From NCBI GenBank assembly GCA_964497125.1, contig CAZCDU010000005.1, positions 35,139-99,138 on the forward strand: a DNA stretch of 64,000 nt, written 5' to 3'. The notes under the pieces were generated by a model, which was not told where the DNA came from, made no database searches, and saw only the letters and a list, made by a program, of their open reading frames with translations. Position 1 is the stretch's first letter, and each line of letters starts with the position of its first letter. The translations under genes were made by a program, and so were the position numbers. Positions 5,122 to 60,010 of the stretch are shown piece after piece. Source of the stretch: an uncultured Victivallales bacterium (GTDB lineage Bacteria; Verrucomicrobiota; Kiritimatiellia; UBA8416).

Positions 5122-6642
5122 ATGAAATCAATTCTGTCATGTACGATAGCCGCTGTTCTGATGAGCTTTGGACTTACGGCAACTGCCGGTGAGTTTGTTT
5201 CCATCTTTGATGGCAAGACGCTTGACGGGTGGGATGGCGATCCCCGCTTCTGGCGGGTCGAGGACGGTGCGGTCGTTGGCGAAACGACTGAGGAGGTACC
5301 GACAAAGGGCAACACGTTTTTAGTCTGGGAGGGTGGTGAGGTAGCTGACTTTGAGCTCAAGGTGGAGTTCAAGATCCGCAATCACAATAGTGGTATCCAG
5401 TACCGCAGCTTTCCAATAGAGGGGAAGCAGTGGGTTGTGGGCGGCTACCAGGCCGACTTCTCTTCCGACCATAAATGGACCGGTTCCGCCTGGGGTGAGA
5501 AGTACAAGAAGATGTTGGCCGTTCGCGGCGAGAAGACCGTTGTAGGCGAACAGGGGAAAGCCCGGCGCGTGGTGGCGCAGGTCGGGGATGGCGAGGAGAT
5601 CCTCGCGCACGTCGACAAGGATGGTTGGAACGAATACCACATCATCGCCAACGGCAACCAGTGTATCCAGAAGATCAACGGCGTGGTGACAGCGGAGTTT
5701 TCTGAGAGCAGCGAGGAGCGCTTGCGCTCAGGGCTGATTGCCCTGCAGCTTCATGGCGGGCCACCAATGCAGGTGAGCTTCCGCAATATTCGTCTGCGCA
5801 AACTGAATGCCGATGACAAGAAACAGGTTCTCTTCCTGGCCGGTAATAAGAGCCACGGGTACGGCGCACATGAACACAAGGCTGGTTGCCACCTTCTGTC
5901 CCGTTGCTTGAATGAAAGCGGGTTGGACGTTGTCAGCCAGGTAACGACCGAAGGGGCGTGGCCACAGCCGTGGGTCGGGTACGATAAACCCGATACCGTT
6001 GTTATGTACTGTGACGGCTACGCCAGGCACCTGGCCAAGAGTCACCAGGACAAGATTCAGACGCTTGTCGACCAGGGGGTAGGGGTTGCCTGCCTGCATT
6101 TTGGTGTTGAGGTGGTGAAAGAGGAGTTGGGCCCGCAGTTCCTGGAGTGGATTGGCGGGTACTTCGAGAACGGCTGGTCGGTCAATCCACACTGGACGCC
6201 AACGTTCGAGCCGCTGCCCGGGCATGCGATCTGCAACGGCGTGAAACCGTTTTCGATTCGGGACGAGTGGTATTACCACATGCGGTTCCAGCCGGAGTTT
6301 GAAAACACAACCGCCATCCTTGCCGCGAAGCCCCCTCTCGAAACGCTGAAGCGTAAGGGCAGCCGGGGCACGAACCCGACGGTGCAAGCTGCTGTCGAGG
6401 CGGGCGTACCTCAAATCGTGTCTTGGGCCTATGAGCGCCCGAATGGCGGGCGTGGGTTCGGATTCACCGGCGGCCATTTTCACCGCAACTGGGCGCAGGA
6501 TGACTTTCGGAAGTTGGTGTTGAACGCGCTCTACTGGACCGCTGGTGGTGACGTGCCGGCCGATGGCATTGCATCACGTACGCCCACAGAGATTGACATG
6601 GAACTGAACCAGGATTACCCGAAACCAAAGGCGCGCAAGTAG
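5122..6642 (+). CDS. Secreted DUF1080 (3-keto-disaccharide hydrolase-like) domain fused to ThuA-like (trehalose utilisation) domain
   Basis: Signal peptide MKSILSCTIAAVLMSFGLTATA; FDGKTLDGWDGD...ALQLHGG (DUF1080 hallmarks) then ThuA-like C-terminal half; aggagg RBS before ATG 5122. Confidence 0.65.
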   Translation: MKSILSCTIAAVLMSFGLTATAGEFVSIFDGKTLDGWDGDPRFWRVEDGAVVGETTEEVPTKGNTFLVWEGGEVADFELKVEFKIRNHNSGIQYRSFPIEGKQWVVGGYQADFSSDHKWTGSAWGEKYKKMLAVRGEKTVVGEQGKARRVVAQVGDGEEILAHVDKDGWNEYHIIANGNQCIQKINGVVTAEFSESSEERLRSGLIALQLHGGPPMQVSFRNIRLRKLNADDKKQVLFLAGNKSHGYGAHEHKAGCHLLSRCLNESGLDVVSQVTTEGAWPQPWVGYDKPDTVVMYCDGYARHLAKSHQDKIQTLVDQGVGVACLHFGVEVVKEELGPQFLEWIGGYFENGWSVNPHWTPTFEPLPGHAICNGVKPFSIRDEWYYHMRFQPEFENTTAILAAKPPLETLKRKGSRGTNPTVQAAVEAGVPQIVSWAYERPNGGRGFGFTGGHFHRNWAQDDFRKLVLNALYWTAGGDVPADGIASRTPTEIDMELNQDYPKPKARK

Positions 6643-7947
6643 CGCGAGGAAGCATAGTACGATGAGTGAAGTTACACGACGGCACTTCATGCGCGACACC
6701 GCGGTGGCCACTGCGGCGATCAGCACGTTCAACATTCTCTCTTCCCGTGCCCAGGAGGCAGCCGGAGGCGAGGTCCTCAAGGTAGCCGTTGTGGGATGCG
6801 GCGGTCGCGGCAATGGTGCGCTCGGCCACTTCCGGGATGCGGCGAAGCTTCTCGGGAAGGACATTGAGGTCGTCGCGCTATGCGATGCATTTGAGGACCG
6901 GGTCCAAGGCTCGTTGAAGCGCCATGGCGTTGACGCGTCCCGCGGGCACTGGGGCTTCAATGCCTACAAGAAAGCCGCGGAGTCGGACGCGGAGTTTGTT
7001 CTTATGGCGACGCCGCCGAACTTCCGCCCTCTGCATCTTGAGGCGATGATCGAGGCGGGCAAGCACTGCTTTGTCGAGAAGCCCGTTGCGGTGGATCCGG
7101 TCGGGGTGCGCAAGGTGATCGAAGTGGGGGAGCGAGCGAAAGCCAAGGGGCTGGCCATCGTGGCCGGCACTCAGCGCCGTTACCAGAAGAACTTCATCAT
7201 GAACAAGGCCCGCGTTGATGCCGGCGCGATCGGACAGATTGTTGGCGGTACGGTGTCATGGAACGGCCGAGTCCCGTGGATTCACAGACGGAAGGCTCAC
7301 TACAGCGACGCCGAGTATATGACCCGTAACTGGTTGAACTTCACGGAGCTATCGGGCGACCACATCTGCGAGCAGCATGTGCATAACCTTGATGTTGCCA
7401 ACTGGTTCATCGGTCGTACGCCGCAGACCTTTATTGGGTTTGGCGGACGTGCCCGTCGCGAGACAGGCAACCAGTTTGATTTCTTCAGCGTTGACATGGA
7501 CTATGGTGATGGCGTCCATATCCACAGTCAGTGCCGGCAGATTCCGGGTTGCTACAACCGGGTTGGCGAGGTCCTGCGTGGTACCGAGGGAAGGGTCGAT
7601 GGTGGTGGTCGCCTATCCGGCAAAGAGGTGACCGTGCCGGATCCCGTGCTGGAGCATGGCAGCGGCTACGTCCAGGAGCATGTTGAACTGATCAAGGGAG
7701 CCCGGAATGGGAAGCCCGCGAATGCAGCCCGCACCGTTGCTGAGGCGACACTATGCGCTGTCGCAGGTCGGATTTCTGCCTACACGGGCAAGTTGGTGCG
7801 GTGGCGTGATATGATGGAGAATACGAACTCCCCGCTCTATTCGCTCGAGCTTGCCCCGACGGCGTTGGCATTTGAGCAGGGCGAAATAGTCCTGCCCGCA
7901 GAAGTGGCACCGATACCCGGCATGGGGGATGGGGCACGGAATCGAGG
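6009..7947. repeat. Copy 1 of 1939-bp near-identical direct repeat (1 mismatch seen)
   Basis: 6009-7947 aligns base-for-base with 9517-11455 (offset 3508); only difference noted g/a at 7911 vs 11419. Confidence 0.9.
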
Positions 7948-7951
7948 ATAG
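6662..7951 (+). CDS. Gfo/Idh/MocA family oxidoreductase with twin-arginine (Tat) signal
   Basis: RRHFMRDTAVATAA Tat motif; Rossmann VAVVGCGGRGNGALGHF; EKPVA motif of Gfo/Idh/MocA. Confidence 0.8.
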   Translation: MSEVTRRHFMRDTAVATAAISTFNILSSRAQEAAGGEVLKVAVVGCGGRGNGALGHFRDAAKLLGKDIEVVALCDAFEDRVQGSLKRHGVDASRGHWGFNAYKKAAESDAEFVLMATPPNFRPLHLEAMIEAGKHCFVEKPVAVDPVGVRKVIEVGERAKAKGLAIVAGTQRRYQKNFIMNKARVDAGAIGQIVGGTVSWNGRVPWIHRRKAHYSDAEYMTRNWLNFTELSGDHICEQHVHNLDVANWFIGRTPQTFIGFGGRARRETGNQFDFFSVDMDYGDGVHIHSQCRQIPGCYNRVGEVLRGTEGRVDGGGRLSGKEVTVPDPVLEHGSGYVQEHVELIKGARNGKPANAARTVAEATLCAVAGRISAYTGKLVRWRDMMENTNSPLYSLELAPTALAFEQGEIVLPAEVAPIPGMGDGARNRG

Positions 7952-9516
7952 AGTTTGGATTGATGTGTCGCGAGCAACGCCATGCTCTCACTGCGTCGAG
8001 CCAGTCTAGATGGGTCGTCGAATCATCTGCCCTTTTGCGTCTTTTGCTCGTTTCGCAGTCCAGGGCCTTGTGGCGCGGAGGATCGCGAGACGGAGAGTAG
8101 AACGGAGAGTAGGGACAGGCAATTAGTAAGGATTGGTCAGTAATGGCAGCTGACGCAGGGGAAGTGGGGTGGATGCTTGTGTCTGAGCTGGCCGCTATGG
8201 GCCGGTCAGCGGTTAGCCCCCTGTGGTTGCGCGCAGATTTGGCGCGCAAGAACACTTACGATAACGATCTTGGCTGCAGATAGGCAGAGCTCACCTGCAA
8301 GTAGTACTCAGTGAGACATGGGATATCCCCGCCTAGCAGGTCGCCGGCGGTGTGATGACCTGAAGCCGTAGACGACGGGCAGTGTATATATCTCCCCATT
8401 GGCAGCCTGCCATCTTGCGGGCGCCGGTCTTGCGTCTCTCACCGAACTGTTGTCGGTGTCTCTCGAAGACATCTTCGACGTAGGCCTTGCTGCCAAGGAC
8501 TGCGCCATCAGCAAAATAGCGTACACGACAACGTAGTACCTGGTTGATTGGCAGAGCGCCGCCGGCATCCAATACGGCTTTGGCTTCCTTAGGGCTGAAG
8601 CCCGGCTTCAGGGGCTGGCCATCCGTGCCTGTGCCGCGGGTCTCTCCCTTCGTGTAGAGCAGCGTGCGGTATTGCTTTGATACCGCGTTCCAGGAGATGT
8701 CCTGATTGGGCGTGCACATGATACGCGATAGCCCCGCTCTTGCCCGCTTTGAGCCTCCCATGGCTTCGCCGTAGCCGCAGAACCGGTAGTCTTTCGGATC
8801 GCTCACAATCCCGGCACGAACAGCATTTAGATCGACATAGGCAGCTACGGCGGACAACGCCCCTTCGCTGTCTCCGACCAAAAGGCTTTTGAACCGTTCT
8901 TCCCAAAGCGTGCCCTTGCGGCCGTGGCGACGATTGTAAGACATCGTGACGCGTTGTTTTAGTGTTTTGAGGAATTCCGAGATGTCATACATCCGATAGG
9001 TGTATTTGGCCTTCAGGGCTTCGGCCGCCTCATGCTCTCCGGTCTCGCGCATTTCAGCAAGTCTTGCTTCCGTGCGATTGGCCTCACGGCGATCATAGAG
9101 ACTTCGGTGTCGGAAGAGGAATAGGCTGTCGCTGACCTCTTCTCGTTCTGGCACATGCAGGACGATGTGAAAATGATTGTCGAGTACGGAGTGCGTCACA
9201 ATCTCGACACCACAGAAGGACTCCGCAGCCCGCATTACCTGTAAAAAGCGTGTCTTTTCGTCGTCATCAAACACCCAACGGCGGTCAACAACGCGTGACA
9301 TGACATGATAGTAGGCTGCGTGATCTTCTCGTATTCGTGCTCTTCGCATACTGGAGTCCTTTCGTGCTCACCGGCACGCTACTGGTGCCTTCTAACCTGT
9401 AGAAGAAGCGAATTCGCATAATTCCGAAAAAAGTTGGAACTTTCTTTGGATGGACTGTGTGTCCCTAGCTGTTGCTAGCTGGTGGTGTTGGATAGACTGT
9501 GTGTCCCTAGCTGTTC
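7948..9516 (-). mobile_element. IS200/IS605-like single-ORF element (Y1 HUH transposase) lying between the two repeat copies
   Basis: Contains tnpA-like ORF 8333..9349; GC-rich hairpins near both ends (ttgcgcgcagatttggcgcgcaa 8231-8253; cgtgctcaccggcacg 9361-9376); 21-bp direct repeat gactgtgtgtccctagctgtt x2 at 9454-9474 and 9495-9515. Confidence 0.55.
8333..9349 (-). CDS. Y1 (HUH) tyrosine transposase, IS200-like/REP-associated family, unusually long (338 aa)
   Basis: HUH motif HFHIVL, YHVMSR N-terminal motif, catalytic Tyr region YVDLNAVRAGIV. Confidence 0.7.
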   Translation of the reverse strand: MRRARIREDHAAYYHVMSRVVDRRWVFDDDEKTRFLQVMRAAESFCGVEIVTHSVLDNHFHIVLHVPEREEVSDSLFLFRHRSLYDRREANRTEARLAEMRETGEHEAAEALKAKYTYRMYDISEFLKTLKQRVTMSYNRRHGRKGTLWEERFKSLLVGDSEGALSAVAAYVDLNAVRAGIVSDPKDYRFCGYGEAMGGSKRARAGLSRIMCTPNQDISWNAVSKQYRTLLYTKGETRGTGTDGQPLKPGFSPKEAKAVLDAGGALPINQVLRCRVRYFADGAVLGSKAYVEDVFERHRQQFGERRKTGARKMAGCQWGDIYTARRLRLQVITPPATC

Positions 9517-10150
9517 CTGTGACGGCTACGCCAGGCACCTGGCCAAGAGTCACCAGGACAAGATTCAGACGCTTGTCGACCAGGGGGTAGGGGTTGCCTG
9601 CCTGCATTTTGGTGTTGAGGTGGTGAAAGAGGAGTTGGGCCCGCAGTTCCTGGAGTGGATTGGCGGGTACTTCGAGAACGGCTGGTCGGTCAATCCACAC
9701 TGGACGCCAACGTTCGAGCCGCTGCCCGGGCATGCGATCTGCAACGGCGTGAAACCGTTTTCGATTCGGGACGAGTGGTATTACCACATGCGGTTCCAGC
9801 CGGAGTTTGAAAACACAACCGCCATCCTTGCCGCGAAGCCCCCTCTCGAAACGCTGAAGCGTAAGGGCAGCCGGGGCACGAACCCGACGGTGCAAGCTGC
9901 TGTCGAGGCGGGCGTACCTCAAATCGTGTCTTGGGCCTATGAGCGCCCGAATGGCGGGCGTGGGTTCGGATTCACCGGCGGCCATTTTCACCGCAACTGG
10001 GCGCAGGATGACTTTCGGAAGTTGGTGTTGAACGCGCTCTACTGGACCGCTGGTGGTGACGTGCCGGCCGATGGCATTGCATCACGTACGCCCACAGAGA
10101 TTGACATGGAACTGAACCAGGATTACCCGAAACCAAAGGCGCGCAAGTAG
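9517..10150 (+). pseudogene. Truncated duplicate of the ThuA-domain 3' end (last ~211 codons of 5122..6642)
   Basis: Identical to 6009-6642; lacks N-terminal DUF1080 and first part of ThuA domain; ORF 9482..10150 only has a fortuitous upstream ATG. Confidence 0.7.
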
Positions 10151-11455
10151 CGCGAGGAAGCATAGTACGATGAGTGAAGTTACACGACGGCACTTCATGC
10201 GCGACACCGCGGTGGCCACTGCGGCGATCAGCACGTTCAACATTCTCTCTTCCCGTGCCCAGGAGGCAGCCGGAGGCGAGGTCCTCAAGGTAGCCGTTGT
10301 GGGATGCGGCGGTCGCGGCAATGGTGCGCTCGGCCACTTCCGGGATGCGGCGAAGCTTCTCGGGAAGGACATTGAGGTCGTCGCGCTATGCGATGCATTT
10401 GAGGACCGGGTCCAAGGCTCGTTGAAGCGCCATGGCGTTGACGCGTCCCGCGGGCACTGGGGCTTCAATGCCTACAAGAAAGCCGCGGAGTCGGACGCGG
10501 AGTTTGTTCTTATGGCGACGCCGCCGAACTTCCGCCCTCTGCATCTTGAGGCGATGATCGAGGCGGGCAAGCACTGCTTTGTCGAGAAGCCCGTTGCGGT
10601 GGATCCGGTCGGGGTGCGCAAGGTGATCGAAGTGGGGGAGCGAGCGAAAGCCAAGGGGCTGGCCATCGTGGCCGGCACTCAGCGCCGTTACCAGAAGAAC
10701 TTCATCATGAACAAGGCCCGCGTTGATGCCGGCGCGATCGGACAGATTGTTGGCGGTACGGTGTCATGGAACGGCCGAGTCCCGTGGATTCACAGACGGA
10801 AGGCTCACTACAGCGACGCCGAGTATATGACCCGTAACTGGTTGAACTTCACGGAGCTATCGGGCGACCACATCTGCGAGCAGCATGTGCATAACCTTGA
10901 TGTTGCCAACTGGTTCATCGGTCGTACGCCGCAGACCTTTATTGGGTTTGGCGGACGTGCCCGTCGCGAGACAGGCAACCAGTTTGATTTCTTCAGCGTT
11001 GACATGGACTATGGTGATGGCGTCCATATCCACAGTCAGTGCCGGCAGATTCCGGGTTGCTACAACCGGGTTGGCGAGGTCCTGCGTGGTACCGAGGGAA
11101 GGGTCGATGGTGGTGGTCGCCTATCCGGCAAAGAGGTGACCGTGCCGGATCCCGTGCTGGAGCATGGCAGCGGCTACGTCCAGGAGCATGTTGAACTGAT
11201 CAAGGGAGCCCGGAATGGGAAGCCCGCGAATGCAGCCCGCACCGTTGCTGAGGCGACACTATGCGCTGTCGCAGGTCGGATTTCTGCCTACACGGGCAAG
11301 TTGGTGCGGTGGCGTGATATGATGGAGAATACGAACTCCCCGCTCTATTCGCTCGAGCTTGCCCCGACGGCGTTGGCATTTGAGCAGGGCGAAATAGTCC
11401 TGCCCGCAGAAGTGGCACCAATACCCGGCATGGGGGATGGGGCACGGAATCGAGG
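9517..11455. repeat. Copy 2 of 1939-bp direct repeat
   Basis: See copy 1. Confidence 0.9.
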
Positions 11456-11459
11456 CTAG
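10170..11459 (+). CDS. Gfo/Idh/MocA family oxidoreductase with Tat signal (intact duplicate of 6662..7951)
   Basis: 429-aa product identical to first copy except where repeat ends at last codons. Confidence 0.8.
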   Translation: MSEVTRRHFMRDTAVATAAISTFNILSSRAQEAAGGEVLKVAVVGCGGRGNGALGHFRDAAKLLGKDIEVVALCDAFEDRVQGSLKRHGVDASRGHWGFNAYKKAAESDAEFVLMATPPNFRPLHLEAMIEAGKHCFVEKPVAVDPVGVRKVIEVGERAKAKGLAIVAGTQRRYQKNFIMNKARVDAGAIGQIVGGTVSWNGRVPWIHRRKAHYSDAEYMTRNWLNFTELSGDHICEQHVHNLDVANWFIGRTPQTFIGFGGRARRETGNQFDFFSVDMDYGDGVHIHSQCRQIPGCYNRVGEVLRGTEGRVDGGGRLSGKEVTVPDPVLEHGSGYVQEHVELIKGARNGKPANAARTVAEATLCAVAGRISAYTGKLVRWRDMMENTNSPLYSLELAPTALAFEQGEIVLPAEVAPIPGMGDGARNRG

Positions 11460-12633: not shown

Positions 12634-12672
12634 GCGTTGCACGTTGCAGTCGTTGCACGTTGCAGTCGTTGA
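12634..12672. repeat. Tandem ~16-bp repeats GTTGCAGTCGTTRCAC (2.5 units)
   Basis: gcgttgcacgttgcagtcgttgcacgttgcagtcgttgaac; same unit in tandem at 33429-33508. Confidence 0.6.
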
Positions 12673-12724
12673 ACGGGGGATCAAGAACCGGAGCTGGAGG
12701 AGCGCGTTAGGTGAAGGTGGGTAG

Positions 12725-23765: not shown

Positions 23766-23926
23766 CGCGGAACGCGGAATGCGGAATGCGGAATTGAGAG
23801 GGTATTCCGACGCTGCGCGTTGGCACGCTGAGGCGTGTGCGGCTCGCCAGGGACCCTTCAGCCTAGAAGCGGCAGTTCAACTGCTCTTTCTAGGTTCAGT
23901 GGTGGGCAGGCAGACTCACCCTACCT

Positions 23927-24160
23927 GGGAGTGCGGAAGAGGCACAGGCTCCCCGGAATACCGGGGAAGCCCGTCCTACACGGGTGTTGCGGAAGAGGCA
24001 CAGGCTCCCCGGAATACCGGGGAAGCCCGTCCTACACGGGTGTTGCGCGAGAGGCACAGGCTCCCCGGAATACCGGGGAAGCCTGTCCTACACGGGTGTT
24101 GCGCGAGAGGCGCTGGCTCCCCGGAATACCGGGGAAGCCTGTCCTACACGGACTGTTGCA
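23927..24160. repeat. Tandem repeat, 56-bp unit x ~4, each unit with hairpin ccccgg-aata-ccgggg
   Basis: Period 56 measured at 23941/23997/24053/24107; units contiguous, near-identical. Confidence 0.85.
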
Positions 24161-29506: not shown

Positions 29507-29653
29507 TGTGGTTCGCGTCTTCTTCTTGGGGCCCTGTGTGGTGCTACTGTATTCTGGCCCTTTCGGGCCAGCTCGGCTCGGCAGGGACGCCTCGCCCTAC
29601 CAGGAGGAGTTGGTCGTGACGGCCAACGCTACACATGAGATGTCATGTGGAAT

Positions 29654-33428: not shown

Positions 33429-33508
33429 GGTTTCAGTCGTTACAATCGTTTCAGTCGTTACACGTTTCAGTCGTTACACGTTGCACGTTGCAGTCGTTAC
33501 ACGTTGTG
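33429..33508. repeat. Tandem ~16-bp repeats GTTTCAGTCGTTACAC / GTTGCAGTCGTTACAC (~5 units)
   Basis: Same family as 12634-12672. Confidence 0.6.
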
Positions 33509-35436: not shown

Positions 35437-35544
35437 CTTGAGGTGTCAGTGTTCAGTGTTCAGGTTTCAGGGCGAGATGTTCCGACGCTGCGCATCGGTG
35501 CCACTTGCGTGGCGTGTTGGCCGAGATGGCCAACGCTACAACTT

Positions 35545-51613: not shown

Positions 51614-52738
51614 ATGGCAGATGTAACCCTGAAAGACGTGTACAAGATCTATCCTGGTGATGTCACAGCGGTGAAAGAGTTCAATCTTCATATTGAGCAT
51701 GGGGAGTTTCTTGTGCTGGTTGGGCCATCCGGCTGTGGAAAATCAACGACACTGCGTATGGTGGCCGGGCTCGAAGAGATTTCCAAAGGCACCGTCCAGA
51801 TCGGTGAGCGCCTCGTTAATGACGTCCCGCCGAAAGATCGCGACATCGCCATGGTCTTCCAGAATTACGCGCTCTATCCGCATATGACGGTTTACGACAA
51901 CATGGCATTCGGGTTGAAGCTTCGGAAGTTCAAGAAGGCTGAGATTGAGAAGCGCGTCAAGGACGCCGGCGAGATTCTGGGGCTCACCGAATACCTGGAT
52001 CGTCGTCCGAAAGCTCTTTCCGGTGGTCAGCGCCAACGCGTTGCCATGGGACGCGCGATTGTTCGTGAACCGGCCGTGTTCCTGTTTGATGAGCCGCTTT
52101 CGAACCTGGATGCCAAGATGCGTGTTGAGATGCGTAAGGAGATCCTGCGCCTCCACAAACGGATCGCTACCACGATGATCTACGTGACACATGACCAGGT
52201 CGAGGCCATGACGCTTGGTGACCGTATCTGCGTGATGCGCGATGGCATCATTGAGCAGGTGGGGGAACCCACGACAGTGTTCGATCATCCGGCATCGCTT
52301 TTCGTGGCGCGCTTTATCGGGACGCCCCCCATGAACATCTTTGAGGGCACACTGGTGGCTGAAAACGGTCAGACCGTGTTCGTTGGTGGCGAGCTGCGTG
52401 CACCCATTGCGGAGCGGCAGCTCGATATGGTGAAGGACTTCGTCGGCAAGCCGGTTTCTCTTGGCCTACGCCCCAAAGCGTTTTCGCTGAAGGATGCGAA
52501 CACCCCGCCCGATGCCGTGGCATTGCCGGGCACGGTTGAAGTCTGCGAACTGCTGGGGGAAGAGATCCTGGCGCACATGCACAATGGTGATCACAAGTTC
52601 ACGGTCAGCCTGGACCCGCATGTGAAGGCTGAGCTGGATGGTGTTCTGGATATCTGTCTCGACATGCAGCGGGTACATATCTTCGACAATGAATCGGGGC
52701 GGAATCTTACCATGCCGGGGGCGCTCCGGAACGGGTAA
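51614..52738 (+). CDS. ABC transporter ATP-binding protein, carbohydrate-import MalK/UgpC-like (orphan, no adjacent permease)
   Basis: GPSGCGKST, LSGGQRQRVAMGRA, FLFDEPLSNLD; C-terminal TOBE-like domain. Confidence 0.85.
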   Translation: MADVTLKDVYKIYPGDVTAVKEFNLHIEHGEFLVLVGPSGCGKSTTLRMVAGLEEISKGTVQIGERLVNDVPPKDRDIAMVFQNYALYPHMTVYDNMAFGLKLRKFKKAEIEKRVKDAGEILGLTEYLDRRPKALSGGQRQRVAMGRAIVREPAVFLFDEPLSNLDAKMRVEMRKEILRLHKRIATTMIYVTHDQVEAMTLGDRICVMRDGIIEQVGEPTTVFDHPASLFVARFIGTPPMNIFEGTLVAENGQTVFVGGELRAPIAERQLDMVKDFVGKPVSLGLRPKAFSLKDANTPPDAVALPGTVEVCELLGEEILAHMHNGDHKFTVSLDPHVKAELDGVLDICLDMQRVHIFDNESGRNLTMPGALRNG

Positions 52739-53222
52739 GCCTCCTTGGCTGGAGTCTGCTTGCCGGGGACGGCTGCTCAGACTAGGCCTGCGGAGGCTTA
52801 CCCGTTCCTCCGCTGGTTGTTTGAGGCTTTGGGGCAGGGCGCTCCAGAACGGGTAGTCCTCCTTGGCTGGAGTGAGCGGGGCGCTCACTAGGCCTTCGGA
52901 GGACCACCCGTTCTTCCGCTGAGTGTTTGAGGCTTAGGGGCAAGGCGCTCCGGAACGGGTAGGCCTCCTTGGCTGGAGTCTGCTTGCCGGGGACGGCTGC
53001 TCAGACTAGGCCTGCGGAGGCTTACCCGTTCCTCCGCTGGTTGTTTGAGGCTTTGGGGCAGGGCGCTCCAGAACGGGTAGTCCTCCTTGGCTGGAGTGAG
53101 CGGGGCGCTCACTAGGCCTTCGGAGGACCACCCGTTCCTCCGCTGAGTGTTTGAGGCTTTGGGGAGGGCGCTCCGGAACGGGTAAGCCTCCTTGGCTGGA
53201 GTCTGCTTCGTAAGGTAGGGCG
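52716..53222. repeat. Tandem array of structured repeats: 224-bp super-unit (A 118 bp + B 106 bp) x2 plus partial; first unit overlaps last codons of ABC gene
   Basis: ctccttggctgg anchor at 52741/52859/52965/53083/53188; A and B variants keep nested hairpins with compensatory changes. Confidence 0.85.
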
Positions 53223-53789
53223 AACCGTCTCGGTGAGCCGGGATGTACGGCGAACGCATACCTTGTTTGGCACCGCTGCCGATCGAACCGGGTATTCGTC
53301 GTACTTCGTACGCCGCGCGGCTCGGCAGGGACGCCTCGCCCTACCTCGGCGGCATCGTGCGGGAGGGCGAAGTTCTCAGGTCAGCTCCACCGCCGGCGTC
53401 GTTTCTCCGCCAGATCATACATGATGGAAACTTCTCTTGCGTAGGCCGGACATCTTGTCCGGCTGTTCAACTGAAGGATGTAGGCGGGAATCCCGCGGCT
53501 GCGGGACCGCCCTACGGAAGAACCGGAAACACTAAGGAACTGTGGGTGAAGTTCCAGGTCAGCTGGGCCGGCGGCCCAGTCATTGGGTCATTTGGCTCGC
53601 TTCGCGAGCGTCATTAGTCATTGGGAAAGAGGACCGCATTAATCATGCGGGAAACTTCCCAATGACGTGCCGAAGGCACAAATGACCAATGACGGCGGCG
53701 TAGCCGCCTAATGACGAAACGACGAGTGAAACGAGGAAGTTTCAGACTAGGACAGGATGCTCCGGAACGGGTAGTCCTCCTCGGCCTGG
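53223..53789. repeat. Non-coding block rich in GC hairpins and dispersed repeat modules
   Basis: gctcggcagggacgcctcgccctacc (also at 29575), gtaggccggacatcttgtccggc (also at 59918), CAATGAC motif array 53575-53715, partial repeat-A seed at 53758-53780. Confidence 0.6.
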
Positions 53790-54410
53790 TCATTTGCCTT
53801 CTTCGGCGGTTTTCAGGAGTTTGGCTAGGTCGGTGTGGCCGCGTTGTTGGGCGAAGGCGGCGGCGGAGTCGCCATCGGTATCGACGAGTTTGGGGTTGGC
53901 TTTGTGGTCCAGGAGTAGGACGGCGATGTCACCATGGCCTTCGGCCGCTGCGAACATCAAGGCGGTCCAGTTTTCATGTCCATCGGTCAGGTTCACTTCA
54001 GCGCCGGCTTTTAGCAGTGCCTTCACTGTATCGAGATTCGGCCCCGTTGAGGCATACATCAGGGCGGTGCGCTTGGTTTCATCACTGGCGTTCACATTGG
54101 CACCGGCCGAAAGAAGCGCTTCCACGATGGGGGTGTGGCCGTTGAAGGCGCTGAGCATCAAGGCCGTGCGACCATCAGGAGCAGAGATGTCCGGATCGGT
54201 CCCGTTCTTCAGTCCCAACTGTATCCTTTCCAGCTTGCCTCCGAGTGCGGCTTCCAGGAACTGCTCCAATGGCATGGGATTGAGCGGCTTTGTCGTCTCC
54301 GCTTGTGGCTTGGGTTCCGGTTTCTCGGGCGGACGATCGCAACCTGTTAGAAGCGTAGCTGCGGTCAGGGCAGCCAGAATGGATGTCATTTTCCGGGTAG
54401 TGCAGGTCAT
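53790..54410 (-). CDS. Ankyrin-repeat lipoprotein
   Basis: Lipobox LLTGC; ANK repeats (TALMLSAFNGH, TALMYAS, TALMFAAAEGH). Confidence 0.7.
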   Translation of the reverse strand: MTCTTRKMTSILAALTAATLLTGCDRPPEKPEPKPQAETTKPLNPMPLEQFLEAALGGKLERIQLGLKNGTDPDISAPDGRTALMLSAFNGHTPIVEALLSAGANVNASDETKRTALMYASTGPNLDTVKALLKAGAEVNLTDGHENWTALMFAAAEGHGDIAVLLLDHKANPKLVDTDGDSAAAFAQQRGHTDLAKLLKTAEEGK

Positions 54411-59813: not shown

Positions 59814-59915
59814 GGCGGACGATGCTCCGGGCTATTATGCGGTGTGGGAAGTGCGGGGGAGTGGACTAGTAGGGTCCGAGCGCACTCGGACTAATCATGG
59901 GCGCAACTTCTTTGG

Positions 59916-60010
59916 TAGGCCGGACATCTTGTCCGGCAGAGGAAGAGGACCGACGGGCAAGATGCCCATCCTACATATGGAGTCGAAAACGTTAGGAAAC
60001 AGGTGAAGTT
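59916..60010. repeat. Dispersed repeat module (hairpin gccggaca-tct-tgtccggc ... gtgaagtttcagg) shared with 53436-53560
   Basis: 23-nt identical core gtaggccggacatcttgtccggc at both loci, similar 3' end. Confidence 0.6.

Follow-up and report, generated by a model that had tools for sequence, protein, structure and literature searches.

Palindromic repeats in the spaces between bacterial genes, among them repetitive extragenic palindromic (REP) sequences, their hairpin-forming doublets (REPINs), bacterial interspersed mosaic elements (BIMEs) and enterobacterial repetitive intergenic consensus (ERIC) sequences, have been studied mostly in Proteobacteria, and both their function and their spread are debated. 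In Escherichia coli, BIME-2 arrays repeat in tandem a half-site, a short linker, an inverted half-site and a long linker; they lie between gene ends that are often convergent, vary in copy number, and have been proposed to stabilise mRNA 3′ ends or to bind protein, a picture reportedly due to Gilson and Bachellier and to Ton-Hoang and colleagues in 2012. ERIC/IRU and Correia repeats are imperfect palindromes of about 100–150 nt in transcribed intergenic DNA that are thought to alter mRNA stability or termination; their arms are similar in all copies, Correia repeats have target-site duplications, and stem covariation around an invariant core and a fixed stop-codon position are not known in these families. 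REPINs are inverted REP doublets that form hairpins in which compensatory changes are common (Bertels & Rainey 2011, PMC3116915), and in Pseudomonas fluorescens SBW25 they build ordered tandem clusters that include flanking DNA and sometimes alternate two REPIN groups, the largest comprising four REPINs and one REP in just over 700 bp (PMC3116915). REP families tagged with GTAG/CGTC occur in a range that includes bacteria of the Planctomycetes–Verrucomicrobia–Chlamydiae (PVC) group; REP ends often give stop codons to flanking open reading frames (ORFs), and tandem reiteration of REP clusters extends to the DNA beside them (Di Nocera et al. 2013, PMC3733652). Here we describe a palindromic element from poorly known marine PVC bacteria, present as a tandem array at positions 52720–53208 of a 64,000-nucleotide stretch (hereafter the window) from an uncultured Victivallales bacterium (assembly GCA_964497125.1, contig CAZCDU010000005.1, positions 35,139–99,138). 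With somewhat more confidence than doubt, we read it as a REPIN/BIME-like dispersed intergenic repeat of about 105–118 nt, clustered by tandem duplication and forming stable hairpins at transcript 3′ ends.

The array begins at the 3′ end of a gene for a MalK/UgpC-like ABC ATPase (374 aa, 51614–52738, plus strand; ORF list, Pfam ABC_tran and OB_MalK), whose final five codons and stop (GCG CTC CGG AAC GGG TAA) fall within the first unit. It occupies part of the 1052-bp spacer between this gene and a convergent ankyrin-repeat gene, the far boundary of the intergenic region (53790–54410, minus strand; Pfam Ank_2/Ank). Named homologues of the MalK protein come from Pontiella and Tichowtungia (62–73% identity) and closer ones from metagenome-assembled genomes (MAGs) labelled 'Verrucomicrobia' or Kiritimatiellia, in keeping with a Kiritimatiellia-like PVC host. 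Four full units and one truncated unit, all on the plus strand, follow one another in the order A-B-A-B-A′, the full ones being 105–118 nt long. Unit A1 (52720–52837; match to the covariance model R1 introduced below at 52717–52832, 107 bits; fold −66.9 kcal/mol) carries an A-type apical module, the mini-hairpin GCCGGGGACGGC, with the tail CGCTGGTTGTTTGAGG and a short linker after the hairpin. Unit B1 (52838–52943; match 52835–52938, 107.7 bits; fold −58.7 kcal/mol) carries a B-type apical stem, GAGCG GGG CGCTC. Units A2 (52944–53061; match 52941–53056, 106.4 bits), which has one G·U in its outer stem P1, and B2 (53062–53166; match 53059–53162, 106 bits) are near-identical duplicates of A1 and B1, and A3′ (53167–53208), recognised by sequence as a member of repeat family D2, consists of the 5′ arm and the 5′ half of the core and ends after GGAGTCTGCTT, at a junction identical in five other assemblies.

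A first-pass annotation of the window, made from the sequence alone, had counted five units by the anchor ctccttggctgg at 52741, 52859, 52965, 53083 and 53188. These positions are correct, but the fifth unit is truncated at 53208 inside the apical part, and a sixth copy was overlooked: a solo 5′-arm fragment (GATGCTCCGGAACGGGTAGTCCTCCTCGGCC) at 53752–53785 on the plus strand (repeat family D2, 67% identity over 48 nt; BLASTN 23/23 with 1 mismatch), which adjoins the stop codon of the ankyrin gene and together with A1 brackets a 1-kb repeat mosaic. The alternation of A and B in a 224-bp super-repeat was borne out by the spacing of the anchors (118, 106, 118 and 105 nt) and by Tandem Repeats Finder, which reported a period of 224 with 2.2 copies for 52720–53208 (97% matches, score 941) and a period of 106 with 3.9 copies for 52781–53202. 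A 221-nt direct repeat (52720–52940 and 52944–53164) is 99% identical, the 5′ 48-nt part recurs in six copies spaced 118, 106, 118, 105 and 589 nt, and the 14-mer CTCCGGAACGGGTA, allowing at most 2 mismatches, has six occurrences where chance alone would give 0.41, and all six fall in this intergenic region. The proposed stems were likewise recovered, gcctcc/ggaggc and agtctg/cagact in A and tcctcc/ggagga and agtgagcg/cgctcact in B. Each unit folds as one long hairpin (−57 to −67 kcal/mol; fold z −3.5 to −4.7 on the plus strand and about −7 on the minus strand), behind which lies a G/T-rich linker of about 27 nt. The units had also been said to share a common start; B units begin gcgctccAgaacgggtagT, so the starts of A and B are not identical.

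Copies of the element exist well beyond this locus. An exact search with the 5′-arm pattern GCTCCRGAACGGGTARNCCTCCT gave no match in genome contigs or metagenome contigs; the outer stem proved to be the variable part of the element. A pattern built on the core (CCTCCTTGGCTGGAGT, 6–36 nt, ACTAGGCC) matched five contigs of MAG CAYLXP01, an 'uncultured Victivallales bacterium' (GTDB genome), and a two-arm pattern built on the outer arms matched three metagenome contigs. At least seven element loci lie on the five MAG contigs (about 50 kb sampled), and six related metagenome contigs have the element directly after argJ. Fuzzy searching yielded 15 copies, from which alignment A4 and then model R1 were built; the model scores 18 copies at 80–114 bits, and where the two strands were compared, sense matches reached 90–114 bits and antisense matches 20–27 bits. 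It found no extra copy in the window, nor in contigs L011, L013 or L021, two patterns had no match in viral contigs, and BLASTN in distant mode had none in plasmid and phage collections. Rfam 15 matched no family in the window at gathering thresholds and, at E ≤ 10, returned just chance miRNA- and RNAI-like matches of 16–20 bits. The opposite-strand ORFs of the array are repeat artefacts, as first suggested, since its six-frame translation retrieved no protein at E ≤ 0.01.

From 5′ to 3′, the consensus consists of CGCTYCGG; the variable outer stem P1 of 10–12 bp; P2, CCTCC, occasionally altered jointly with its partner strand; TT; GGCT; GG; AGT; a variable apical stem-loop; ACT; A; GGCC; NNC; GGAGG; the P1 complement; CCTYCGCTGG; and a G/T-rich tail, which reads CGCTGGTTGTTTGAGG or CGCTGGGAGTTGGGG. 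The feet CGCTYCGG and CCTYCGCTGG are found in 18 copies. The core GGCTGGAGT...ACTAGGCC is invariant and asymmetric in all strong copies, so the orientation of the element is defined; its two strands, GGCUGGAGU and ACUAGGCC, form a conserved U·G and internal loops of 2×1 and 2×3. The element can be described as an inverted doublet of a conserved motif of about 16 nt, CCTCC-nn-GGCY-n-AGT, flanking the variable apical stem-loop; the 5′ half reads CCTCC-TT-GGCT-GG-AGT and the reverse complement of the 3′ half CCTCC-GNN-GGCC-T-AGT. Both the A-type and the B-type apical modules are present in MAG CAYLXP01, which identifies A and B as family subtypes rather than products of local divergence, and the earlier view that they had diverged in place by compensatory mutation was abandoned. 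A supposed pyrimidine 'identity covariation' in a symmetric 3×3 loop (TYC/TYC) was also dropped: 14 of 18 copies agree, many of them non-independent, and 4 disagree.

The paired differences between A and B stems had been taken as a signature of selection on secondary structure. In the window these changes do keep the pairing, but the evidence there is thin (three double-change pairs and one broken pair among four sequences of two types, a result equalled by 23 of 500 shuffles) and becomes convincing only when family members from outside are included. For the family, 15 members were assessed on an RNAalifold consensus against 500 shuffles and slid controls. Thirteen of the 25 consensus pairs changed on both sides (6.0 ± 1.3 in shuffles, at most 7 in slid controls), 39 cells were double changes (10.5 in shuffles, at most 11 in slid controls) and 93.4% of cells were paired (82.3% in shuffles, not more than 56% in slid controls). 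With copies present at other loci and these values reached by none of the 500 shuffles, the units are neither unique to this locus nor devoid of covariation. The covarying parts are the outer and apical stems, and covariation so far above shuffles indicates that the hairpin is maintained. At the orthologous argJ site the stems GGAACGGGTACTCCTCC, GGAACGGGTACACCTGC, GGGGCGGGGTGTCCCTC and GGAATGGGGTGCTCTCC differ, each with a compensating complement. The stems are 96% Watson–Crick, and of 312 cells 3 were G·U and 6 A·C on the sense strand, in a small sample with one invariant U·G left out. Arm-to-arm templated correction of quasi-palindromes is a known mutational route, and the pairing pattern fits a DNA palindrome or such correction as well as it fits RNA.

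The first-pass annotation also suggested that the array was seeded in, or generated from, the coding end of the MalK gene. This is part of an alternative in which a locus-specific tandem repeat arose from the MalK 3′ coding end and its A and B units diverged in place under local selection on structure. The MalK-tail sequence does open each unit, and the A and B units of the window agree at 15 of 17 outer-stem positions, which fits local duplication or homogenisation. In other genomes, however, the element, including CGCTCCGGAACGGGTA..., is non-coding DNA after the stop codon of argJ and after other genes. Homologues of MalK end in ...NLTMP plus 1–5 variable residues, whereas the window protein ends GALRNG, and a relative with a 93% identical MalK (L013–L020) has a MalK–ankyrin gap of 31 bp with no element. 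Taken together, the non-coding copies, the variable tails and the element-free relative indicate that the element supplies the last codons and the stop of MalK (ALRNG-stop), not the reverse. Smith–Waterman scores between the unit and the MalK–ankyrin spacers of relatives were not above those of shuffles, so derivation of the unit from the native spacer was rejected, and the shared words CTTGGCTG and TGAGGCTT were put down to chance. With both apical types in MAG CAYLXP01 as well, an origin from the MalK coding end is highly improbable; in its strong form it is already refuted by the copies elsewhere. The near-shared outer stem of A and B in the window would be explained if the units had been duplicated locally and had swapped apical modules, or if the array had been homogenised.

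Tandem copies include a few bases of the upstream gene end (GTGA/CGCT after argJ, GGG/CGCT in the window, where the slash marks the start of the element), and the 224-bp super-repeat contains the linker together with such gene-end bases. These copied bases explain why the units appear to start with the MalK tail.

The position of the element relative to genes is strict. At 8 of 8 independent loci it lies on the strand of the upstream gene or tRNA and starts −20 to +5 nt from its 3′ end; the upstream neighbours, all on the same strand, are MalK in the window, PSP1 (L025), T2SS-F (L026), a tRNA 3′ end (L027), T2SS-K and a 176-aa ORF (both L028), tRNA-Arg (L029) and ArgJ (L030, L031). The probability of the eight orientations alone arising by chance is about 0.004. 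The suggestion that the array was targeted to its gene end is half right: each member of the family sits against the 3′ end of a gene or tRNA on its own strand. The bases preceding the element (TGA/CGCT, TAG/CGCT, CCA-GGG/CGCT, TGAG/CGCT) show no common motif. Within apparent operons, two copies separate co-directional genes, T2SS-K from PilM/N and PSP1 from aroQ.

Such a position would fit a dedicated cis-acting structured RNA kept by the host through selection at transcript 3′ ends, whether as a terminator, an RNase III-type processing site or a protein-binding 3′-untranslated-region module. On this explanation the array would be several signals in a row insulating two convergent genes, and GGCUGGAGU/ACUAGGCC would be a recognition site for a protein or RNase while the stems need only pair. 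Besides the same-strand position at stop codons and tRNA ends, it would account for strong covariation beside an invariant core, for a model score that favours the sense strand, and for retention after argJ, down to 77% identity, with compensated stems. However, the sense strand has no wobble bias in the pairing counts given above (weak evidence in so small a sample), a terminator scan of the array found no terminator-like site and there is no U-tract, so that the element does not qualify as a canonical intrinsic terminator, and a strong terminator would be polar within the two apparent operons. Close relatives lack the element at the MalK site, no Rfam family matches, and the five tandem copies together with decayed or chimeric copies (L033b, L036, L027b) resemble the dynamics of a repeat rather than a tuned signal. 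We consider this explanation, the chief alternative to our reading, possible, if on balance doubtful.

A position 3′ of ORFs, a fixed orientation, variable sequence with conserved structure and asymmetric unpaired bases are also features of integron attC sites, and the array could in principle be a series of attC-like recombination sites in an integron-type cassette array. The feet of the element, CGCTYCGGAAC... and ...GTTCCTYCGC, are however not RYYYAAC and GTTRRRY, and its conserved part lies in the middle, not at the ends. The upstream sequences are syntenic housekeeping genes and tRNAs, not cassettes; no integrase was found among the genes called within 10 kb; and consecutive units have no ORF between them. 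Identity with attC sites is thus extremely improbable.

The remaining described families resemble the element more closely in some respects than in others. Like the REPINs of P. fluorescens SBW25, it is an inverted doublet of a short conserved motif that forms a 70–110-nt hairpin with a spacer constrained just in length and pairing, its copies are extragenic, and the largest SBW25 cluster is close to the A-B-A-B-A′ array described here. It differs in having neither a GTAG-type tag nor a demonstrated cognate REP-associated tyrosine transposase (RAYT) beside a cluster, in outer stems that are almost wholly different between copies, and in lying strictly at the very end of an upstream gene or tRNA, always on the strand of the latter. 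With BIME-2 it shares the tandem half-site layout between (often convergent) gene ends and a variable copy number, whereas its sequence is different, its hairpin is longer and an invariant asymmetric core takes the place of the Y and Z types of REP. GTAG/CGTC-tagged REPs are likewise palindromic repeats of PVC genomes that supply stop codons and are reiterated in tandem with their flanks, but the element is 3–5 times longer, lacks terminal GTAG/CGTC and is built on a composite stem whose internal loops are conserved. Like ERIC and Correia repeats it is a long palindromic intergenic repeat; unlike them it combines covarying stems, an invariant core and a fixed position. Several other identities were tried and rejected: a CsrB-like GGA sponge, as the GGA motifs lie within stems; a ToxI-like antitoxin array, as the units are too long and a downstream toxin gene is missing; a template/variable repeat pair of a diversity-generating retroelement, for want of a reverse transcriptase and of adenine-specific differences; and CRISPR, as there are no spacers. 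We class the array among extragenic palindromic repeats in the broad sense, as a new family clustered by tandem duplication; the evidence does not place it with the RAYT-mobilised elements.

The exact MalK protein is present on 20 contigs from several marine metagenomes, which allowed the copy number to be compared among assemblies. Five of these contigs (L001, L002, L003, L007, L009) have a short form, A1-B2-A3′, that is 224 bp shorter than the window, so that short and long forms differ by exactly one super-repeat; L005, from a different sample, has the B1- and A2-specific single-nucleotide differences of the long form, and four contigs terminate within unit A1. Three or more units are certain at this locus and five are backed by two assemblies, and the difference between three and five may reflect collapse of short reads or real population variation. 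One cluster representative (P0001, contig L012) encodes a variant MalK ending GALQNG rather than GALRNG, on a contig that stops 16 bp past the gene; the variant is probably an assembly switch from an A-type to a B-type 5′ arm.

An alternative bearing on these data is that the tandem structure, or its copy number, was created by mis-assembly of a palindromic repeat. The three rather than five anchors in five assemblies, the four contigs broken off within A1 and the switch to a B-type arm 16 bp before the end of the GALQNG contig could all be read in this way. Against it, A-B-A′ or more is present in six independent assemblies, the long-form differences specific to B1 and A2 recur in L005 from another sample, and related clusters occur at other loci and in other genomes; an assembly artefact is therefore very improbable.

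Comparison of orthologous sites shows both gain or loss and long retention. At the MalK site, the element is absent from the 93% identical relative described above, and a further relative, with 92% identity (L011), has a 348-bp spacer of unrelated hairpins and 30-nt repeats; such differences among close relatives mark the MalK–ankyrin spacer as a site of lineage-specific repeat insertions. Orthologues of argJ (77–100% identity) all have one or two copies directly past the stop codon, one of which is degenerate, and an argJ of 73% identity overlaps argB and has no element there, with two copies elsewhere on the same contig. Retention at argJ and absence from the MalK site of relatives indicate that the element can persist for long at one site yet vary between close relatives. 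Clustering is not peculiar to the window: pairs follow argJ in four contigs (L030, L031, L033, L034), and the clusters include pairs of different subtypes after argJ, a duplicated pair enclosing a remnant (L034), a chimeric second copy (L033) and a partial triplication (L028).

On the reading of the element as a REPIN/BIME-like repeat, a single element or an A+B pair would have been acquired between the convergent MalK and ankyrin genes, overwriting the non-conserved tail of MalK. The A-B pair would then have been duplicated in tandem through unequal recombination or slippage, taking a few flanking bases with it and giving rise to the 224-bp super-repeat, which would still vary in copy number (three or five units). 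A transcript of the locus would carry one to five very stable stem-loops beginning at the stop codon. By analogy with REP and BIME elements, these hairpins would most likely hold back 3′ exonucleases and limit read-through from one convergent or adjacent gene into the next. With its foot overlapping the stop codon, the hairpin may in addition disturb the termination of translation, as Liang, Rudd and Deutscher reportedly found in 2015 for E. coli REPs near stop codons. The invariant asymmetric core would be a putative recognition site for a protein that copies or binds the element, the obvious candidate being a DNA enzyme with strand specificity, for instance a Y1/HUH transposase.

Several observations weigh against this reading. 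No link was found between the element and a Y1/HUH enzyme. A GTAG/CGTC tag is absent from the foot of the element in alignment A6, GTAG being found only within stem P1 of some window units. The window does contain a Y1_Tnp/RAYT-like ORF (8333–9349; Pfam E 2.5e-12), which scores 59 bits against the cut-off of 80 for NCBIfam REP_Tyr_transpos; model R1 has no match in its flanks, or anywhere in the window outside the array, and a connection between the array and this gene was sought and not found. Across 36 kb of the MAG loci no Y1 gene was seen, and in the 64-kb window the array is the sole element locus that R1 detects. A strict position at gene and tRNA 3′ ends with no common target sequence is not a described property of REPINs. 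Both the retention after argJ to 77% protein identity and the outer stems, which diverge more between copies than recent copy-and-paste from one master predicts, can be accounted for by selection for a host function no less readily than by selfish spread. The proposed role in RNA, for its part, is weakened by the G·U and A·C counts and by the missing U-tract and terminator-like sites noted above.

These points leave room for a further, tentative view to which we give clearly less weight. The element may belong to an undescribed 3′-end family of Kiritimatiellia/Lentisphaeria-like bacteria, in which a dedicated protein would read the core GGCUGGAGU/ACUAGGCC and the stems would be free to covary, or may be a new mobile hairpin that lacks the RAYT hallmarks and homes to gene 3′ ends. 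As a 3′-end family, it may be put and retained by the host right after stop codons and tRNA ends as a routine mark of the gene end that serves termination, processing or stability, the lineage seemingly lacking canonical U-tract terminators.

The remainder of the intergenic mosaic (53209–53751) is made of unrelated repeats that have copies elsewhere in the window. One is a hairpin of about 134 nt (53213–53346), with feet GGTAGGGCGA... and ...TCGCCCTACC; its 3′ foot recurs intergenically at 97% identity (29571–29601) and more weakly in a third region (23837–23867). A REP-like sequence, GTAGGCCGGACATCTTGTCCGGC, at 53441–53463 is one of several GTAG-headed palindromes of classical REP type in intergenic DNA (53441–53463 and 59915–59937; 29609–29633 and 35516–35540; 59955–59974), some of them in inverted pairs. 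Sites with GTAG plus a hairpin number 17 in the window against about 10 in shuffles, an enrichment too modest for the window to be called REP-rich by this measure. A multi-hairpin element of about 185 nt, rich in CAATGAC/GTCATTG (53567–53750; fold z −6.9; no Rfam match), completes the mosaic. A copy of it lies at another locus in the relative L013 (11104–11318, between genes for TsaE and a glycosyltransferase) and is 92–98% identical with a 31-nt apical insertion; since the flanking L013 genes are just about 77% identical, this is a second structured element that is apparently mobile. The word CAGACTAGG, common to A-type units and the end of the 185-nt element, also ends the L013 copy, which has no hairpin unit nearby, and was dismissed as coincidence.

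Further repeats were noted in the window and in related sequences. The RAYT-like ORF (338 aa, minus strand) lies in a 1565-bp segment between two 1943-bp direct copies (6009–7951 and 9517–11459) that are the same but for 2 mismatches and each contain a ThuA C-terminus and a GFO/IDH/MocA oxidoreductase gene, a layout shared by four other assemblies. A 56-bp tandem repeat of 4.1 copies (23932–24159) has in each unit a GGCTCCCCGG/CCGGGGAAGCC hairpin followed by GTCCTACAC, and the GTCCTACAC motif also occurs in a 30-bp array of 5 copies (1717–1896) upstream of the MalK gene of L011. The heptad CGTTGCA/CGTTACA forms arrays in two intergenic regions far apart (12635–12675 and 33430–33506), and A-rich repeats of AAAGCTGAAA type occupy four sites (12581, 48516, 49891 and 63537); these may be protein-binding or promoter-region motifs. 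Outside the window, positions 1–94 of the metagenome contig Ga0318553_10172081 (L032) form a hairpin with the 17-nt outer arms of the window units (AGAACGGGTATGCCTCC and its complement) and a wholly different inner part, scoring just 17 bits with model R1. The genome in which the hairpin element is present in many copies also codes for a bAvd/23S_rRNA_IVP protein (a diversity-generating retroelement accessory protein; L037, 20234–20611).

In practice, the element interrupts short-read assemblies, changes the C-terminal end of an ABC ATPase and creates spurious ORFs. Its pattern is unusually clean, with an invariant core, freely covarying stems, a position at gene and tRNA ends, retention at argJ, and gain or loss between close relatives elsewhere. 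This makes the element a good test case for whether such a repeat is selfish DNA, a host end-of-gene signal, or both.

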